This document shows, in pieces, positions 2,096-38,592 of a stretch of 64,000 nucleotides of DNA (its first letter is position 1; each line of letters opens with the position of its first letter). Source of the DNA: a bacterium (GTDB taxonomy: Bacteria > Patescibacteriota > Saccharimonadia > Saccharimonadales > AWTP1-31). The position numbers were made by a program, and so were the translations under genes. Under the pieces are notes generated by a model. It did no database searches, was not told the DNA's origin, and was given only the letters and a program-made list of their open reading frames with translations. The stretch lies in contig JAUHZB010000001.1 of assembly GCA_030426125.1 (NCBI GenBank), positions 158,583-222,582 of the forward strand, in the 5' to 3' direction.

Positions 2096-2386
2096 ATGGA
2101 TGACTTTAACCCTCTTGATCTCAGTGCACCGCCAAAAAAAGTTACTGATGAGCCAAAGACTACAGTAAAAGAATTTGAGGCCAAACCAACCGTTAAGCGA
2201 GTTAGTATGGGCCCCTTATTTCACTCTAGAATTACGCGGGTCCTTGCTCTGATCCTAAGTGTTGTTTTGTTCGCTCTAATAGGCTACTCCGCTATGAACT
2301 ACTATCTGACTAGTAAAGATGCTAATAACACCTCTAGTAAACCGTTTATGCTACAATTAGGTTACAAGAATACGGAAAAGGGTTAA
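2096..2386 (+). CDS. Small single-TM protein
   Basis: 96-aa ORF with TM segment VLALILSVVLFALIGYSAM. Its stop overlaps the next start (TAATG at 2384-2388). Confidence 0.5.
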   Translation: MDDFNPLDLSAPPKKVTDEPKTTVKEFEAKPTVKRVSMGPLFHSRITRVLALILSVVLFALIGYSAMNYYLTSKDANNTSSKPFMLQLGYKNTEKG

Positions 2387-3036
2387 TGAAAAAAAAGATC
2401 ACTTTCTTCCTAGTGTTATCCATGTTTGGGCTTGGACTGCTAACGCCAGTTGTTGGCTTGGCTGCTACTGAAGATAAGCCGGAGACAACCACCGATAAAA
2501 TAGAGAAGACGCTGGATGCTCGTTACCAACAATACAAAAAAGATCACCCCACTAATTTGACCGAGAAGCAGTTAAATAGACTAAAGAATCTGTGTACGCC
2601 AGCTCAAGCTAAAACTAAGCAACTAACCCAAGTTGCCGTAGATAAAGGCGACAAGCGTTCTAAACTTTATCAGCAAATAGTTGAGAGGGTAGAGTCTTTG
2701 GTCGCTGAGCTAAAAGATTATGATGGTCAGGCAGAGATATCTATTGTCGAACTTGAAGTTAAAACAACCGAGCTAAAGGCCAAAGTAGATAGTTTTAAAT
2801 TAGATATATCTACTTACCAAGTTGCCTTAAATGACCTAAGTAGCATTAACTGTGAAGAGTTTACCGATACTTTCAAGTCTGCACTTGAAGAAGTAAGAGA
2901 GCAGAAAGCTGGCTTAGTCAGTTCCTCAGATGAAATTAAGCAACTTATTAACCAGAGCATTAAACCAGAATTAGCTAAGATTAAGGAAGCTCTGAGCGAA
3001 CAGACAGATAGCGCAGGAGATAAAGATAATGGATGA
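2386..3036 (+). CDS. Secreted coiled-coil protein
   Basis: Signal-peptide-like N-terminus MKKKITFFLVLSMFGLGLLTPVVGLAA, followed by Lys/Glu/Gln-rich heptad-like sequence. Confidence 0.6.
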   Translation: MKKKITFFLVLSMFGLGLLTPVVGLAATEDKPETTTDKIEKTLDARYQQYKKDHPTNLTEKQLNRLKNLCTPAQAKTKQLTQVAVDKGDKRSKLYQQIVERVESLVAELKDYDGQAEISIVELEVKTTELKAKVDSFKLDISTYQVALNDLSSINCEEFTDTFKSALEEVREQKAGLVSSSDEIKQLINQSIKPELAKIKEALSEQTDSAGDKDNG

Positions 3037-3889
3037 TATTAAACGACCACCAAAAAACACCAATCTTGCTTCAAATGGTACCGATCCTAAACCTAGTGTA
3101 TCGTCAAAAACTGGGCCTATCAGTCAAACTTCAGGTAGTTTAAATCAGGATGCAGCTACCAAGACTAGTAGAACTGCACCTAATATTGATCCTCCAAAGA
3201 CAACGGATAAACCTCCAGCACCAAAAGAACCAGTGTCTTTGGATCAACTGGATGGTGAACAGCCAAAAGCAGATAAACCGGCAGATAAACCTGCTTCGCC
3301 AGAAGAGGTAGCTCGGCAAGAACCTAAGCCGGCTCAGTCGGCAACTGCTGTTGATTCAAGTCCTCATGTTTACGATCCTAGCTCAAGTTCTAGTCAAAGC
3401 ATAGCAACCAAGCCTGAATCTAAGCCTAGCCTTAGTAGCAACCCTCAGAAGCCAGAAGCTGTGTCTAACGATGTTAAGTCGCCAGCTGCTAGTGAACCAT
3501 ATAAATCATCAGTTCAAACTAAAGCTGGCAATATTCCAACTACTGAACTTCCACCACCTCCAGATTTAAGTGATAGCAAGAAGGGAAAAGTAAGCAAAGC
3601 ACCAACCGATCATCCCAAGCGGAAGTTTAACTGGATGGTGGTAATAATCGCTTTGGTCTTAGCTCTAGCCTTAGCTGGTGGCGCTGGTTATGCCTACTGG
3701 CAGAGTCAGCAACAACCAACCAACACAACCCCAGTTGTAGAAAGATCAGATCCCGAGGAAGAAGACAGCGGAGTATCTGCTGAAGATATAGATAATGCGA
3801 CTAGCGACATAGACAAGGCTCTACAAGAAATAGAAGAAACCGATGAGGTGCTTAACAGTGATCTAACCGATCAAGGTTTAGAGCTTTAA
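3029..3889 (+). CDS. Pro/Ser/Lys-rich low-complexity protein with a C-terminal TM and acidic tail
   Basis: 286-aa ORF. Its start overlaps the upstream stop by 8 nt (ATGGATGA). TM segment WMVVIIALVLALALAGGAGYAYW. Confidence 0.6.
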   Translation: MDDIKRPPKNTNLASNGTDPKPSVSSKTGPISQTSGSLNQDAATKTSRTAPNIDPPKTTDKPPAPKEPVSLDQLDGEQPKADKPADKPASPEEVARQEPKPAQSATAVDSSPHVYDPSSSSSQSIATKPESKPSLSSNPQKPEAVSNDVKSPAASEPYKSSVQTKAGNIPTTELPPPPDLSDSKKGKVSKAPTDHPKRKFNWMVVIIALVLALALAGGAGYAYWQSQQQPTNTTPVVERSDPEEEDSGVSAEDIDNATSDIDKALQEIEETDEVLNSDLTDQGLEL

Positions 3890-3945: not shown

Positions 3946-4839
3946 ATGGATTTTTTATATAGATTTGCCGCCGAAGATCAGTTCCAGGGTTTTTTGGATA
4001 ATGCTCAGACTTGGTTTAGCGAACATGGTCTAAATATATTGTTTATTATCTCCGGTTCATGGCTAATTGGTAAGATAGCTATCGCTGTAGTGCATGGCGT
4101 GCTTATTAACGCTATGAAAGAGCACTACTTCAAATCGGATAGTGATCGGAAGAAGCGAGCTGACACATTGCATGGTCTAATCTCTGCAGTCATTAAGATT
4201 GCCGTTCTTCTAGTCGCCACCGCCATGATAATCGACGAACTAGGCATTAATACGGCACCACTACTAGCAAGTGCTGGTGTGATGGGTGTAGCCTTAGGTA
4301 TCGGGGCCCAGTCTTTCATTAAAGACTTTGTCAGTGGTATTTTCATAATTAGCGAAAACCAGTTTAGGGTTGGCGATGTTGTCGAGCTGGAGGCTGGTGC
4401 TGCCGCGCCAGTTAGCGGTAGTGTTGAATCAATCACTATTAGAACTACAATCCTACGAGATATTAATGGTATTCGTCACCATATTCCTAATGGGAACATC
4501 ACCATAGCTAGTAACAGCACTATTGGCTTTAGTTTAATTAATGAAACTCTAGTAGTTGATCAGTCAACAGATCTACAAAAACTAACCGATATTATTAACC
4601 AAATCGGGGCTGAGATGTCTAAAGACCCGAGCACTGGACCGTTCATAAAAGAACAGCTAAACATGGCTCAGATTGCTGGCTATAACGAACGGGGAATTAC
4701 TGTTTCAATCCGAGGTAAGACAGCACCAGGTAAGCAATGGGCTATTAAAGCAGAGTTCTATTCAAGGCTTCAGCCAGAGCTTAAAAAAGCCAAGATAAAG
4801 GTTCCTGTTGCTCCAGTGTTGGCGGGGCAAGGGAAGTAG
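3946..4839 (+). CDS. mscS: Small-conductance mechanosensitive channel (MscS family)
   Basis: Three N-terminal TMs. The pore-helix/beta-domain signature GVALGIGAQSFIKDFVSGIFIISENQFRVGDVVE is typical of MscS. Confidence 0.85.
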   Translation: MDFLYRFAAEDQFQGFLDNAQTWFSEHGLNILFIISGSWLIGKIAIAVVHGVLINAMKEHYFKSDSDRKKRADTLHGLISAVIKIAVLLVATAMIIDELGINTAPLLASAGVMGVALGIGAQSFIKDFVSGIFIISENQFRVGDVVELEAGAAAPVSGSVESITIRTTILRDINGIRHHIPNGNITIASNSTIGFSLINETLVVDQSTDLQKLTDIINQIGAEMSKDPSTGPFIKEQLNMAQIAGYNERGITVSIRGKTAPGKQWAIKAEFYSRLQPELKKAKIKVPVAPVLAGQGK

Positions 4840-4847
4840 GAAATAAG

Positions 4848-5450
4848 TTGGCCAGATCGCCGATTCTCAGTAGCCTAAGCCAGGCAGATAGCTTGCTTAA
4901 AGATGGCAAAATTGGAGTAATTCCGACAGATACGATTTATGGTCTGGCTGTGTGTGCTAAAAAGCCCGAGGCTGTCGATAGGTTGTTTAGCGAAGTTAAA
5001 CCACGCGATAAAAAACCAGGAACTATTATTGCTAGCAGTATTGATCAGTTAGTTGAACTGGGGCTGAAACGCAGGTATTTAACTGCTGTAGAACAATATT
5101 GGCCTGGTGCTATTAGTATAGAGATACCAATCAGTAATGGACTAGAATATCTTCATCGGGGCCATAAATTTTTAGCCGTTAGAATACCAGACGATCAACA
5201 ACTAAGGGGACTGCTGGATAATACAGGGCCGTTGATGACGACTAGCGCAAATTCTCCTGGTGAGCCAGTTGCACTAAACATAGAGCAGGCAATTGACGAG
5301 TTTAAAGATAAGGTTGATTTTTATGTAGATGGCGGCAGTTTAGAAGACAGACTACCTTCAACGGTAATTAGAATTAATGATGACGCTATAGAAGTATTAC
5401 GATCCGGGGCTGTTAAGATAAATGAAGCAACAGGTCGAATTGAGGATTAA
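4848..5450 (+). CDS. tsaC: L-threonylcarbamoyladenylate synthase (YrdC/Sua5 family, short form)
   Basis: TTG start. Motifs GVIPTDTIYGLAV, MTTSANSPGEP and PSTVIR are characteristic of YrdC/TsaC. Confidence 0.85.
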   Translation: MARSPILSSLSQADSLLKDGKIGVIPTDTIYGLAVCAKKPEAVDRLFSEVKPRDKKPGTIIASSIDQLVELGLKRRYLTAVEQYWPGAISIEIPISNGLEYLHRGHKFLAVRIPDDQQLRGLLDNTGPLMTTSANSPGEPVALNIEQAIDEFKDKVDFYVDGGSLEDRLPSTVIRINDDAIEVLRSGAVKINEATGRIED

Positions 5451-14578: not shown

Positions 14579-14713
14579 ACTGAGACTTTATTGTAGCAGA
14601 AGATTACAATAAGCGAAATAAATTAAGTACTATAAAGCTGTGGATAACCCCACAAAACACTTGACAAAATGTACGTCTGGGTGTTACTTGGAAGTAGTAA
14701 AAGGAAAATAAAC

Positions 14714-15127
14714 ATGTATACACAAAAAGATGATCGAGCAAATGAAGTACTAACCTTTGTCGATAGCCGACATAACATAGATCAGCCAACCTGGTTTCCT
14801 GATGGCTCTAGAGTCTACCCGGTATATTGTCGTCGTGAAGATCAGTCTATTGTAGTAGACAGTGCTTTAATAGATATTGTTCCGGGTGTGCATCCAAAAG
14901 AAAGAATTGAAACGACGACTTCTGGACAACATCTGATGGTACTCAGGGGTACGGGAATTATTGATCTAGAACATGTAGAAGATGGTGAAAAAGTGTCAGA
15001 AAAGTTAGAAATACAGGAAGGTATTGAACTGGAGGTTCCTCAAGGACAGGAATATTTCTTTGAAACCGCTGGTGAGCTTGTAGTAAGGGTGACTAGTAGC
15101 GGAGATAAACTTGATCTAGTTGCATAA
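14714..15127 (+). CDS. Hypothetical small beta-rich (cupin-like?) protein
   Basis: I place the start at the ATG at 14714 (MYTQKDD...). It is preceded by AAAGGAA and by TTGACA-N17-TTACTT at about 14662-14690. The ORF-track start at 14669 lies inside that promoter. Confidence 0.5.
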   Translation: MYTQKDDRANEVLTFVDSRHNIDQPTWFPDGSRVYPVYCRREDQSIVVDSALIDIVPGVHPKERIETTTSGQHLMVLRGTGIIDLEHVEDGEKVSEKLEIQEGIELEVPQGQEYFFETAGELVVRVTSSGDKLDLVA

Positions 15128-15203
15128 GATGTAATTGTGACTGTTTCTGATAATGAAATATGGTGGGGGTGGAAGGAATTGAACCTTCGACCAATCGGTT
15201 ATG

Positions 15204-15399
15204 CTTACCACTACAACTTTGGTTGCCCCTTTCGGGTTTGGTGGTCTGGACTGTCTCTTTATCCAATGCTAATTGGATACTTGCCGTTCAGTCTCTACAC
15301 CTTTCCTATACATAGGACTTGGCTCGGGATTACCACGTTTGCACAGAGGCTTCCCCGAATTTGACAAGATATACTTACCGGTTACCCATGTAAGCAGCC
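15204..15399 (-). ncRNA. Compact ribozyme core (IGS, P2 to P9) of the group I intron
   Basis: IGS GGCUG (15399-15395) can pair with exon CGGCU. P2 is CUUACAUGG-GUAA-CCGGUAAG (15394-15374). There is a CCC-GAAA-GGG hairpin (15236-15226) and a P9-like hairpin UAUCCAAU-UAGC-AUUGGAUA. Confidence 0.7.
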
Positions 15400-15400
15400 C

Positions 15401-15430
15401 TGCAACTATATAGCGTATCTAGGATATACT
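15401..15430 (+). promoter_or_regulatory. Candidate promoter for the antisense HNH ORF (leaderless geometry)
   Basis: TATACT at 15425-15430 ends exactly 7 nt before the A of the ATG at 15437. A weak -35, TGCAAC, lies at 15401-15406 (18-nt spacer). There is no SD. Confidence 0.4.
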
Positions 15431-15436
15431 AACAAC

Positions 15437-15853
15437 ATGAATAGTCATTCAATATGTGTAATATGTGACAACAAGCTTAAAGGAAAGCAGCTATTATACT
15501 GTTCAATACAGTGTAAGAATGCTAACCACCAATCATATCCAGCTCAAAAAAAGCGTGGATTAGAACGAAAGCTTAATTTAGTTAAAAAACTTGGCGGGAA
15601 GTGTACTAACTGCGGTTACGCAGATAATCTCGCCGGCCTTGCTTTTCATCACTTAAATAACAAAGCTTTTAAATTGGATGTGCGTTCGTTGTCTAATCGG
15701 AAAGAAGAGTTAATAAACGAAGAAGTAGCAAAGTGTGTATTGCTTTGTCATAACTGCCACGCAGAAACTCATAATCCTGACCTAGACTTAGCTAAATTGT
15801 TAATTGAGCCGACTGCTCTAACCACTGAGCTACACCCCCACGTAACAAAGTAG
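15437..15853 (+). CDS. HNH family (homing) endonuclease, encoded antisense to the intron and tRNA
   Basis: 138 aa. N-terminal Cys4 CVIC...CSIQC. HNH/zinc core CTNCG...LAFHHLNNK...N...LLCHNCHAETHN. Codons 124-138 are the reverse complement of the tRNA 5' exon plus 14 nt of flank. Confidence 0.85.
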   Translation: MNSHSICVICDNKLKGKQLLYCSIQCKNANHQSYPAQKKRGLERKLNLVKKLGGKCTNCGYADNLAGLAFHHLNNKAFKLDVRSLSNRKEELINEEVAKCVLLCHNCHAETHNPDLDLAKLLIEPTALTTELHPHVTK

Positions 15854-15899
15854 AATAAATTCCATTTTTCTCTGTATTTGGGTCTACTCAGCTCGAGTA

Positions 15900-15929
15900 A
15901 TTATACCAGAAGAGTATGGTTTCACTCAA
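15900..15929 (-). promoter_or_regulatory. Candidate promoter of the intron-containing tRNA
   Basis: On the minus strand: TTGAGT (15929-15924), 18-nt spacer, TATAAT (15905-15900). This would give a leader of about 54 nt before G1 at 15839. Confidence 0.35.
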
Positions 15930-15938
15930 CCATACTCT
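15911..15938. terminator. Perfect 11-bp hairpin between the glycoside-hydrolase gene end and the tRNA/HNH locus
   Basis: AGAGTATGGTT (15911-15921), loop TCACTC, AACCATACTCT (15928-15938). Neither side has a clear T-tract, so a terminator role is uncertain. Confidence 0.4.
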
Positions 15939-15972
15939 ATCTGTTGGATTTAGGTAGTACTTATTCTGCGAC

Positions 15973-18141
15973 TTATAGTACTTTGGCGCTACACCAGATT
16001 AGGAAACAGCTTGTTTCAAGAGATATCGATGACGCTTTTGAGCTATTGCCAGCTGCATCAACGGCTTTGATATTATAAACATATGTTTCACCGTTATTTA
16101 AAGATTTATCGTCTGTGAAGCTTGTATCCTTTGTTGTGCCCAGAGTTTCACCATTTCTAGCAACTTGGTACCCAGTTACTCCGACATTATCACTAGATGC
16201 ACTCCAGTTGAGAGCCATTTCGTATCTAAAGCCTGCCCAGTTAGTCTTTAGGCTTGCAGTAAGGTTTTTAGGGGCTGATGGGCTAATTGTATCTTTAGTT
16301 GGCTCTGGAGTTGGAGTAGGGATTGATGTGCTGTTCTGAACATTAACAGTAATTGATTTCTCGGTATAGACATTTCCAGGGTCTCCAGCTTTACGTACTC
16401 GAACCACGAAGGTATGAATACCATTAGTTACTTTGGTAGTATCCCAGTCGTAGGTAGTGCTAGATGATGTAGCTGCCCATTTGTTATCTGGTCGATAAGA
16501 TATTTCTTTTATGTCAAAGTTAGCTTTTACTGATATGCTGGTTATTCCGGAAACTTTCTGGTTGTTGCTTGGCGAGATGAAACTAACGTCTGAAGTTGGT
16601 TCTGGTGCTGGTGGTTCACTCGGATTAGTCGCACACTTATCTCCAGTTCCTTCAGGAACACAAGTTTCGTTGGAAAGGATAACGCGGTCTATTTTTACGC
16701 CTTTTTGAGTGCCGGTAACAGTTACTTGCTTGTTACCTGAGGAAAAATTCTGAGAAGCCAGGGACACCCAAGTCCAATTTGATGAACTTACTTTACTGCC
16801 ACCAACTTTACTGACAATCCCATTATCTATTTGGACGTTTACACTATTGTTGTTAGAGTCGGCGGCTTTCATGCGCACCCATAACTTATATGCTCCATTT
16901 TCGGGGGCTGTTACTTCGCCTTTAACTGTGCCAAAATCATTGGCCGGTTTAATGCTAGTCGATGAACCTAGGTCATTGATACGCATTACTCTTTGATCGT
17001 TTTTTAGGATGTCGTGAAAGGCAGCTAGGACTTTTGGTGGTAGAGAGGTGTCAACATCTTCCTGGCCGGCAGGTGGATTTAAGCTTGAATCAAAGGCTGC
17101 ATAAGCCACTACGTCTTTATTATTTTCAAAACCATAGTTCCAATAATCTCGCATTATTTGCACCCATTTATCTTCCGGATTGGTCTCTCCCCATTCACCT
17201 ACAGCAACTGGCATTTTTTTAGATTCCGCAAATTTTAGAATTGCATCCCAATCTCCAGAGGTAAGAATTGTTTTACCTTTATCGGAACACCCTTTAGGGT
17301 AACAGTATGGATCGACTCCGATTGCATCCCAAATACCATCAACCCACCAACTGTCTATATCTTTTCCAGAAGCTGGATTAACTGTCCAGCCAGTAAAGAT
17401 TGGCATGAATGCTATGTTTTTTGTTTTGACGGCGTTCATTCGTTCTCGTATTTTAACCTGCATTGGCTTCCAGCCGGCAGCACCAGAAGCCTCATCTCCG
17501 CCACCTCCATCTGGTTCATGATGGAATACCACCCAGACTGGTCCGCCTAAGTTGTCTAGGCGCCGAAGTAGGTCGTCTATTATTGCATCATCAGTTCCGT
17601 TAGCTGTTCTATCCCAACCATTTGTCTTAAAAGAAATAAAAGGCAGTCTATTGTTTTGGATGTCGTCTCGGGCGGTTTCTACAGCCTTAGTGATTTTACC
17701 GCTTGTTCGGATATCCCAAAATGTTCTACGAACGGACAATGATGTTCCAGTTGGTGCCTCATGACGAGGTACCGGGTCATCATTACCGCCGATTGATGCT
17801 CCCCAATAAGCTTTTCCGGTTACAAGCGGGTTTGGATCACCAGGGAAACGCTGAGTGCTACTAGTTGTGGTGTTATCTGCGTTGAACTCAACATATTGGC
17901 CATTTGAAGCAGTTTTGTCTGAGATGGGTTTTAATCCGCTACTTAAATTTCCATTCTCGGCTTCAAAACTTGAAGTTGCAGCACTGGCGCTAAATATTAG
18001 GGCAGCGCCTAAGAAAGCAAAAACTGCAACTAGCACAAGGCCAGTTTTGCGGTTCATACTTATATTGCTAAGTAGTGAACTAGACTTTTTCTTTTTACTA
18101 GCGTAGCTTCTAGTGTTTTTGGTCTTTTTTCTATTAGCCAT
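15973..18141 (-). CDS. Secreted multi-domain glycoside-hydrolase-like protein (TIM-barrel ManB/GH26-like core, CBM-like, Ig-like and FN3 domains)
   Basis: Basic N-terminus plus TM/signal anchor. The FEAENG...ASNGQYVEF motif looks CBM-type. The catalytic-like region has VWVVFHHEPDGG and VGEWGE. The C-terminal FN3 reads PSAPKNLTA...WSASSDNVGVTGYQV. Substrate unknown. Confidence 0.65.
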   Translation of the reverse strand: MANRKKTKNTRSYASKKKKSSSLLSNISMNRKTGLVLVAVFAFLGAALIFSASAATSSFEAENGNLSSGLKPISDKTASNGQYVEFNADNTTTSSTQRFPGDPNPLVTGKAYWGASIGGNDDPVPRHEAPTGTSLSVRRTFWDIRTSGKITKAVETARDDIQNNRLPFISFKTNGWDRTANGTDDAIIDDLLRRLDNLGGPVWVVFHHEPDGGGGDEASGAAGWKPMQVKIRERMNAVKTKNIAFMPIFTGWTVNPASGKDIDSWWVDGIWDAIGVDPYCYPKGCSDKGKTILTSGDWDAILKFAESKKMPVAVGEWGETNPEDKWVQIMRDYWNYGFENNKDVVAYAAFDSSLNPPAGQEDVDTSLPPKVLAAFHDILKNDQRVMRINDLGSSTSIKPANDFGTVKGEVTAPENGAYKLWVRMKAADSNNNSVNVQIDNGIVSKVGGSKVSSSNWTWVSLASQNFSSGNKQVTVTGTQKGVKIDRVILSNETCVPEGTGDKCATNPSEPPAPEPTSDVSFISPSNNQKVSGITSISVKANFDIKEISYRPDNKWAATSSSTTYDWDTTKVTNGIHTFVVRVRKAGDPGNVYTEKSITVNVQNSTSIPTPTPEPTKDTISPSAPKNLTASLKTNWAGFRYEMALNWSASSDNVGVTGYQVARNGETLGTTKDTSFTDDKSLNNGETYVYNIKAVDAAGNSSKASSISLETSCFLIWCSAKVL

Positions 18142-31521: not shown

Positions 31522-31596
31522 TGGTAGCGGGGGCAGGACTCGAACCTGCGACCTTGTGGTTATGAGCCACACGAGCTGCCGCTGCTCTACCCCGCG
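31522..31596 (-). tRNA. Initiator tRNA-fMet (CAU)
   Basis: CGCGGGGTAGAGCAGCGGCAGCTCGTGTGGCTCATAACCACAAGGTCGCAGGTTCGAGTCCTGCCCCCGCTACCA. It has a C1:U72 mismatch and is close to E. coli tRNA-fMet as I recall it. CCA is encoded. Confidence 0.85.
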
Positions 31597-38515: not shown

Positions 38516-38592
38516 GCCGGTGTAGCTCAGTTGGTTAGAGCACAGGACTCATAAGCCTGGGGTCAGTGGTTCAAATCCACTCACCGGCACCA
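38516..38592 (+). tRNA. Elongator tRNA-Met (CAU)
   Basis: GCCGGTGTAGCTCAGTTGGTTAGAGCACAGGACTCATAAGCCTGGGGTCAGTGGTTCAAATCCACTCACCGGCACCA. G1-C72 is paired and the variable loop is GGGUC, as in E. coli elongator tRNA-Met (by recall). There is one A31:G39 mismatch. Confidence 0.85.

Follow-up and report, generated by a model that had tools for sequence, protein, structure and literature searches.

A probably mobile group I intron with an antisense HNH gene in the tRNA-Ile2(CAU) gene of Patescibacteria

The tRNA-Ile(CAU) gene of Azoarcus sp. BH72 is interrupted after U36 by a small group I intron of the IC3 type, which is about 200 nt long, contains no open reading frame (ORF) and has a 3-bp P1 helix right at its 5′ end; the CAU tRNA is read as Ile. 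A tRNA(CAU) gene interrupted by a group I intron was also found in a 64,000-nt stretch of a Saccharibacteria-like genome (contig JAUHZB010000001.1, positions 158,583 to 222,582; the whole stretch is referred to here as the window). The window intron appears to resemble the Azoarcus intron in its J3/4-P4, P4′-P6 and P7 blocks and sits after U33, so the two insertion sites are not homologous. It is 603 nt long; the ribozyme occupies the last ~200 nt only, and a + strand ORF for an HNH-type protein runs antisense through the first ~370 nt. A probability of roughly 0.85 is given to the reading that this is a mobile subgroup IC3 group I intron in the one tRNA-Ile2(CAU) gene that the window shows.

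In the tRNA-fMet intron of Synechocystis PCC 6803 the ORF for I-Ssp6803I lies on the sense strand. That intron encodes the endonuclease within P1, at position 33/34 of a tRNA(CAU) gene and with overlapping P1/P2 sequence, all as in the window (PMC3073962); however, its host gene is an initiator tRNA rather than tRNA-Ile2, and its enzyme is of the PD-(D/E)XK rather than the HNH type. A survey of 4,934 complete genomes (Nakagawa et al. 2026, mSystems; PMC13011429) found endonuclease genes in 12 of 333 tRNA introns and described 33/34 as a common insertion site. The position of the window intron is not unusual, because 33/34 is known from tRNA-fMet introns and from Acidobacteriota tRNA-Ile2 introns (PMC13011429). 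The Patescibacteria tRNA introns of that survey were IA-type only, with no IC type and none in Ile2, and the rarity of endonuclease genes among them was taken to mean that there is little horizontal transfer (PMC13011429). The same survey makes out of date a remark in the initial annotation of the window, a note made from the sequence alone, that introns in genomes of the Candidate Phyla Radiation (CPR) are mostly reported in rRNA genes.

The Acidobacteriota tRNA-Ile2 33/34 introns, which were classed as IC3, are 243-244 nt long and lack an ORF (GCA_016700075.1 and GCA_016700175.1; PMC13011429, Table S5). They share with the window intron the tRNA, the U33/C34 site, the ribozyme family, the 3′ terminal domain and a guide sequence downstream of an extended P1. 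The window ribozyme is 72-77% identical to them, and it is by this similarity that the intron is provisionally placed in subgroup IC3, the subgroup of the Azoarcus intron. In contrast, their guide lies ~47 nt from the 5′ splice site, whereas in the window it lies 407 nt away and the intron carries an antisense HNH gene in a Saccharibacteria-like host. HNH genes are carried by the tRNA-Asn(GUU) 35/36 IA introns of Patescibacteria (PMC13011429, Table S3), where they likewise precede the guide, in the 5′ portion of the intron; these introns differ in their IA ribozyme, their tRNA and site and their sense-strand ORF, and the window protein has a different N-terminal zinc-ribbon region. An endonuclease gene opposite the ribozyme is known from nuclear rDNA introns, Dir.S956-2/I-DirII and Dsq.L2066/I-DsqI (PMC3073962, PMC9548176), in which it is expressed from its own internal promoter. 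Those systems, however, are eukaryotic, lie in rRNA genes and involve His-Cys box enzymes, Pol II promoters, spliceosomal introns and polyadenylation. No example of an antisense endonuclease gene in a bacterial or tRNA-gene group I intron was found in the searchable literature. The site, the tRNA and the ribozyme type are already published, and the novelty is the combination: an IC3 intron in a Patescibacteria tRNA-Ile2 gene, an antisense HNH gene in its P1 stem, and a wide distribution, probably across phyla.

The split gene lies on the minus strand. The 5′ exon (tRNA positions 1-33, the last being U33; 15839-15807) reads GGGGGTGTAGCTCAGTGGTTAGAGCAGTCGGCT, and the 3′ exon (positions 34-76, with the CAU anticodon first and CCA encoded; 15203-15161) reads CATAACCGATTGGTCGAAGGTTCAATTCCTTCCACCCCCACCA. 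Joined, they form a canonical 76-nt cloverleaf, as the initial annotation had read directly, and ARAGORN in intron mode agrees: its call at c[15161,15839] is a tRNA(cat) of canonical form, 76 nt long and interrupted at 33/34 by 603 nt of intron (15806-15204). The intron starts after U33 and ends in GGTAAG, with the terminal G (omega-G) at 15204; both the U at the 5′ splice site and the omega-G, which that annotation had pointed out, are verified in the sequence and are invariant among 52 aligned introns. The Rfam model RF00028 (Intron_gpI), a search that it had likewise proposed, matches 15413-15223 (-) over the full model (1-253) with 73.1 bits and E=1.2e-16; the gathering score is 50 bits, and a chance match is excluded by these values. 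The view that a compact group I intron interrupts a tRNA(CAU) gene therefore stands, while the Ile2 identity of the tRNA and the antisense HNH gene had been overlooked. The split gene was detected in the window neither by ARAGORN in default mode nor by the Rfam tRNA model, which together call two other tRNA(CAU) genes there, at 31522-31596 (-) and 38516-38592 (+), and no more. Related genomes were scanned at one per species, giving 70 loci that encode an HNH relative, and in 56 loci a pairing-aware scan recovered this tRNA(CAU), likewise interrupted after U33. The split tRNA(CAU) gene is a genuine, evolutionarily maintained group I intron insertion.

The 52 distinct introns were aligned from the guide sequence through the 3′ exon, and a hand-drawn P2-P9 structure that includes the P3/P7 pseudoknot was scored over 50 pairs in 12 helices, with 500 shuffles and slid partners as controls. 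Standard pairs occupy 97.2% of cells, compared with 81.4% in the shuffles, none of which reached the observed value, and 30-45% when partners were slid. Both-sided changes were seen in 37 of the 50 pairs. The ribozyme is under structural selection. The elements singled out in the initial annotation, namely GGCUG, a P2 hairpin, the conserved blocks GUCAAAUUCGGGG, CCCGAGCCAAG and GUGUAGAGACUGAACGGCA in the 3′ part of the intron and a CCC-GAAA-GGG hairpin, are all present and are backed by covariation across the 52 introns, as is the foldable P3-P9 core, which is intact in the window.

All ribozyme elements are given on the minus strand. The P2 hairpin, CUUAC(A)UGG-GUAA-CCGGUAAG (15394-15374), has both-sided changes in seven of its eight pairs. 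It is followed by the 5′ strand of P3 (15368-15363), J3/4 (AAA, 15362-15360) and the 5′ strand of P4 (15359-15354); P3 is paired in 100% of cells, with four of six pairs covarying, and P4 in 99.7%. The 3′ strand of P4 (CCCGAG, 15328-15323) leads into the P6/P6a hairpin (15322-15300), in which five of five P6a pairs covary. The P3/P7 pseudoknot core (15293-15249) consists of the P7 5′ strand GACUG (15293-15289), the P3 3′ strand GGCAAG (15285-15280), the P8 hairpin (15279-15260) and the P7 3′ strand CAGUC (15253-15249); at the fifth P7 pair 30 sequences have G-C and 19 have A-U, and all five counted P8 pairs covary. The P9 domain (15245-15207) has a stem ACCAC/GUGGU (15245-15241 with 15211-15207) and two inner hairpins, CCC-GAAA-GGG (15236-15227) and CAAC-CAAA-GUUG (15225-15214), and each of its 11 counted pairs covaries.

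The internal guide sequence GGGCUG (15400-15395), with its GGCUG core at 15399-15395, forms the 3′ strand of P1 and pairs with the intron +1 C and with exon U33, C32, G31 and G30 (and C29). U33-G and C32-G are found in 52 of 52 introns and G31-C in 51; in locus L061 (Acidobacteriota) the latter is changed to A31-U, a compensatory substitution. GGCUGC was considered as the guide of the published Acidobacteriota intron and rejected, the conserved GGGUUGC downstream pairing with the A31-containing exon. P1 is prolonged by a covarying extension stem of 10-15 bp. Its 5′ strand, intron positions +2 to +20 (15805-15787), also encodes the ...LAKLLI codons of HNH on the + strand, and its 3′ strand, the 20 nt 5′ of the guide (15420-15401), overlaps the -35 element and spacer of the putative HNH promoter on the + strand. 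The cognate duplex averages -9.3 kcal/mol, compared with -4.4 kcal/mol for non-cognate strands, and is the more stable in 55 of 57 loci. Because the antisense HNH cassette fills the P1 loop, the guide is 407 nt from the 5′ splice site instead of the ~47-49 nt of ORF-free versions. The anatomy is that of an extended P1 hairpin with an HNH cassette in its terminal loop.

The HNH ORF (15437-15853, + strand) encodes 138 amino acids and is antisense to the pre-tRNA. Codons 1-123 are intronic (15437-15806), and the final 15 are antisense to the tRNA 5′ exon and leader, with the TAG stop at 15851-15853. The last 15 residues, IEPTALTTELHPHVTK, are predicted to be disordered, and this tail is missing from 123-residue relatives in which the ORF ends at the intron boundary. 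The conserved C-terminal peptide IEPTALTTEL(H/P)P (window 15807-15853, +) is encoded opposite the tRNA D-arm and anticodon stem; its conservation follows from that of the tRNA and need not reflect a requirement of the protein.

The ORF matches HNH endonuclease families in PHROGs (E=1e-16), and a protein search returned 195 HNH homologues, the best 120 of which are mostly 63-79% identical and about 138 residues long; several of those listed are named as Candidatus Saccharibacteria proteins. In an alignment of 33 homologues C56/C59, H71/H72, N87 and N106-C107-H108-x-E110-x-H112 are invariant and C104-H105 nearly so, giving the HNH motif set C-x2-C, HH, N and CHNCH-x3-H, and the N-terminal region has a zinc-ribbon-like motif, CxxC...CSxxCKNxxHQSY. 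The catalytic half is 44% identical over 63 residues (E=6e-15) to the sense-strand HNH protein of a published Paceibacteria tRNA-Asn intron. An AlphaFold model has a mean predicted local distance difference test (pLDDT) score of 73. The ORF is intact over at least 118 codons inside the intron in 48 loci, among which pairwise differences at codon positions 1, 2 and 3 are 0.32, 0.22 and 0.59; this third-position bias indicates purifying selection on the HNH ORF. In three loci of Gracilibacteria/Peribacteria type (L043, L048 and L053) the ORF has an in-frame TGA near its start (MNCVIC-TGA-N..., at about 2500 in L048 and L053 and about 603 in L043), at a site where homologues such as that of L036 (CKICGKKL) have Gly. 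An in-frame TGA at a Gly position fits genetic code 25 (UGA=Gly) and so suggests that HNH is translated in those hosts.

The HNH gene lies antisense inside the intron, at the same site of the same tRNA, in 57 of the 70 loci, a count that includes three (L020, L044 and L049) called by ARAGORN only. RF00028 matches the equivalent place in 9 of 20 related loci scanned, with 50-81 bits. Most loci are labelled Saccharibacteria, Peregrinibacteria, Peribacteria, Gracilibacteria or other Patescibacteria; the other labels are Anaerolineae (L038 and L047), Capsulimonadaceae (L055, on a 4.2-Mb contig; Armatimonadota), Krumholzibacteriia (L058), Aridibacter (L061; Acidobacteriota) and Bdellovibrionales (L051). 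ARAGORN in intron mode calls an interrupted tRNA opposite the HNH gene in most of the 70 loci but mislabels it in about 25, for example as Leu(taa/caa), and its default mode misses it entirely. Its Leu, Ser, Thr, Val and Pro labels were discarded: a Leu or Ser tRNA should measure ~85 nt, whereas these measure 74-77 nt, and every mislabelled locus has the junction ...GGCT/intron...G/CATAACC..., so the labels arise because the intron mode misplaces the intron boundaries.

Several loci depart from the common arrangement. Two of the 56, L036 and L041 (Gracilibacteria/Peribacteria), have ORF-free introns of 250 and 264 nt in tRNA-Ile2 and, ~1.5-2 kb away, a free-standing HNH homologue among ordinary genes. 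In L036 the homologue lies at 2336-2854 (+) and the split tRNA-Ile2 at 4339-4665 (-); in L041 they lie at 2501-2842 and 4645-4985. This looks like an endonuclease and an intron acting from separate places, or an intermediate of gain or loss. In L056 (2501-2848) and L057 (2501-2863) a free-standing HNH gene has an unusual tRNA(CAU) (GGGTACGTATTTCAGCGGTAGAAAAACCGTCTCATAAACGG...) on one side and a tRNA-Gly/tRNA-Pro pair on the other, and no group I intron was detected at either locus. The intron of L047 (Anaerolineae; 1525-2907, -) is 1307 nt long, with about 700 extra nt downstream of the guide, in the ribozyme part, which could be a second insertion. In L049 the adjacent tRNA-Phe(GAA) is also split (2927-3246, -), by a 247-nt group I intron with an Rfam match of 57.4 bits at 2978-3223, so that neighbouring tRNA-Ile2 and tRNA-Phe genes are both interrupted; the order Gly-Ile2-Phe-Val-Leu is common to L049, L051 and L052.

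Intron-less alleles, with which a comparison had been suggested at the outset, are abundant: an exact search found the uninterrupted site, with an identical 27-nt anticodon arm, in at least 120 metagenome contigs, and the best uninterrupted full tRNA among the matches listed is 97% identical to the spliced tRNA of the window. The ribozymes of the HNH-bearing L061 intron and of a published Acidobacteriota intron that lacks the ORF are 95% identical. Split and uninterrupted alleles, ribozymes that have or lack the ORF and free-standing HNH genes together fit the usual cycle of endonuclease gain, homing and loss. The anatomy, covariation, ORF selection, presence/absence polymorphism and distribution of the element are demonstrated by these comparisons.

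Several points nevertheless weigh against the reading of a mobile IC3 intron in the sole tRNA-Ile2 gene. Splicing, the activity and target of the endonuclease, the promoter and transcription start and a leaderless start of HNH are all deduced from sequence. The window covers 64 kb, and a second Ile2 gene or a tRNA-Ile(UAU) may lie elsewhere in the genome. P1 proper is always paired at three positions only, pairs 4-5 failing in 4-6 of the 52 introns. The ORF has no relevant match in Pfam (HNH at E<=0.1) or NCBIfam and no significant one in a PDB sequence/profile search; Foldseek matches to the model are weak (best E=0.23), though the top ones are HNH nucleases and the best is an HNH nicking enzyme. 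Some labels of metagenome-assembled genomes may be binning errors, and L051 has the tRNA cluster order of Patescibacteria loci. The -35 element of the window HNH promoter is weak, and a generic promoter scan called no + strand promoter in the window.

The lack of Pfam, NCBIfam and PDB sequence matches would suit a protein that is not, or is no longer, a homing endonuclease, but has been domesticated for DNA binding or regulation, assists in splicing or acts as a nuclease on another target, and that is carried by an element that has spread mostly vertically. Such a role would also account for a degree of conservation that is unusually high for a selfish gene, and for the free-standing copies in L036, L056 and L057. 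It is nonetheless unlikely. The catalytic and zinc-binding residues of HNH are invariant, the match to PHROGs endonuclease families is strong, and the catalytic domain is homologous to the intron-borne HNH proteins of tRNA-Asn introns. Occupancy is patchy: among near-identical tRNAs some have the intron and some do not, the same holds for the ORF among near-identical ribozymes, and the element is found in distant phyla. A mobile intron with a homing endonuclease gene (HEG) remains the preferred reading.

In tRNA-Ile2, C34 is normally converted to lysidine, so that the tRNA reads AUA. In an alignment with the ileX and metT genes of E. coli, the spliced tRNA resembles ileX and not metT: it shares the D-loop of ileX, including its length, the A26-G27/GCAG junction and the UUGGUC variable region; its G1 and C72 are paired. 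A search of the E. coli genome with the spliced tRNA gave, as the best matches listed, plasmid tRNA genes annotated as Asn. The window gene at 38516-38592 is metT-like, with the elongator Met features AGUUGGUUAGAGCAC and GGGGUCA, and the gene at 31522-31596 is of the initiator type, with a C1/A72 mismatch. The additional tRNA(CAU) genes near the split genes of related loci are all of the initiator type, and AUA accounts for 31.6% of the Ile codons in the window. In PMC13011429, exons identical to those of L061 are assigned to Ile2. Taken together, the ileX-like body, the separate Met and initiator genes, the L061 exons and the AUA usage identify the interrupted gene, by sequence, as a lysidine-type tRNA-Ile2 that decodes AUA, not a tRNA-Met. 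As the gene is the AUA decoder, splicing is presumably essential.

It could still be argued that the interrupted gene is an elongator tRNA-Met, since the anticodon is CAU, ARAGORN labels it Met and the Ile2 identity is read from sequence features. This is highly improbable, given that the D-loop length, GCAG and the variable region are those of ileX, that the metT-type features sit in the other gene, at 38516-38592, and that L061 has exons assigned to Ile2. Still less credible is a decaying relic, a tRNA pseudogene with an inactive ribozyme and AUA decoded by a tRNA elsewhere: the limited view of the genome, the indirect case for splicing and the expectation that endonuclease-bearing introns pass through degeneration and loss would allow it, but the Rfam score is well over the gathering threshold, all core helices are intact in the window with compensatory changes across 52 sequences, canonical exons occur in 56 loci, the further tRNA(CAU) genes close to split loci are all initiators (the window having one initiator, one elongator Met and the split gene) and AUA is a frequent codon.

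The HNH gene may be expressed from its own promoter. A putative promoter on the + strand (15402-15436) consists of GCAACT (15402-15407), a 17-nt spacer, TATACT (15425-15430) and 6 nt before the ATG. In 36 of 53 loci exactly 6 nt separate a TAnnnT hexamer from the start codon, and -35-like hexamers (TTAACT, TTGACA, TTGATA) adjoin the complement of the guide (CAGCCC) across loci, with spacers of 16-18 nt. This suggests a dedicated sigma-70-type promoter and a leaderless or nearly leaderless HNH mRNA; with a weak -35 and no call by the generic scan, the proposal for the window draws on conservation across loci. Promoter spacers are not usually conserved. A conserved block, GCATATCTAG, lies in the spacer of the putative HNH promoter, at 15407-15424 (+) of the window and at the corresponding position of related loci. 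Part of it is the P1 extension 3′ strand; the remainder may serve as an operator or may pair, in the manner of P10, with CAUA of the 3′ exon. A P10 pairing of the conserved GAUAUG block with the 3′ exon CAUA was considered and set aside, as the exon is invariant and the block is partly explained by the P1 extension.

The pre-tRNA is probably driven by a sigma-70-like site on the minus strand, TTGAGT-18-TATAAT with an upstream TG (15929-15900; 10/12 consensus matches), which is the sole promoter-like site called in 15050-16000 and lies about 60 nt upstream of the tRNA 5′ end. The gene is flanked by a 152-residue ORF of unknown family (14669-15127, +), which converges on the tRNA and ends 34 nt before its 3′ end, and by a 722-residue protein (15973-18141, -) with a weak, partial match to an exoglucanase model (E=6e-15, far below the family cut-off). 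No terminator-like site was found between the 152-residue ORF and the antisense of the ribozyme, so read-through from that ORF could also feed HNH expression.

These features suggest how the element could work. The pre-tRNA would be transcribed from the minus strand, probably from the 15929-15900 site, and the P1 extension (15805-15787 with 15420-15401) would close off the ~370-nt insert and bring the 5′ splice site after U33 beside the guide (15400-15395) while the P3-P9 core (15368-15207) folds. An external guanosine would attack after U33, and the terminal G (15204) would direct exon ligation to yield an intact 76-nt tRNA. The cassette on the opposite strand would supply the 138-residue zinc ribbon and HNH protein, apparently from its own sigma-70-type promoter. 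By analogy with other intron-encoded HNH enzymes, the protein would cut or nick the uninterrupted tRNA-Ile2 gene near the anticodon loop, and repair would then install a copy of the intron there (homing). Bacteria differ hardly at all in this target, which would account for the occurrence of the element in several phyla.

A broader proposal can be offered tentatively: that this is the first family of bacterial group I introns with an antisense HEG, that HNH expression is coupled to the AUA-decoding tRNA, and that the element has moved between phyla with the almost universal Ile2 anticodon loop as its target. As a whole it is doubtful that all of this holds. In this arrangement the last HNH codons may form one strand of the P1 stem and the promoter the other, and the mRNA may be leaderless. 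The HNH mRNA is complementary to ~370 nt of pre-tRNA-Ile2, and HNH expression and tRNA maturation could therefore be coupled, either by antisense pairing or by the collision of converging transcription.

The picture of tRNA introns in Patescibacteria is corrected by an IC3 intron with an intact HNH gene under selection in tRNA-Ile2, an element present in dozens of species of Saccharibacteria, Peregrinibacteria and Gracilibacteria and in a few genomes labelled as other phyla. Standard tRNA finders overlook the split gene or call it Leu, Ser, Thr or Val, so that such genomes appear to be without an AUA decoder. The locus appears to hold a complete mobile element, more than a ribozyme alone, with splicing and homing as its predicted activities. 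Its compact, antisense and apparently leaderless cassette in the P1 stem offers a bacterial system in which to ask how a HEG can be expressed while the ribozyme folds undisturbed. Should the coupling proposed here be real, AUA decoding in reduced CPR genomes would come under the influence of the element.

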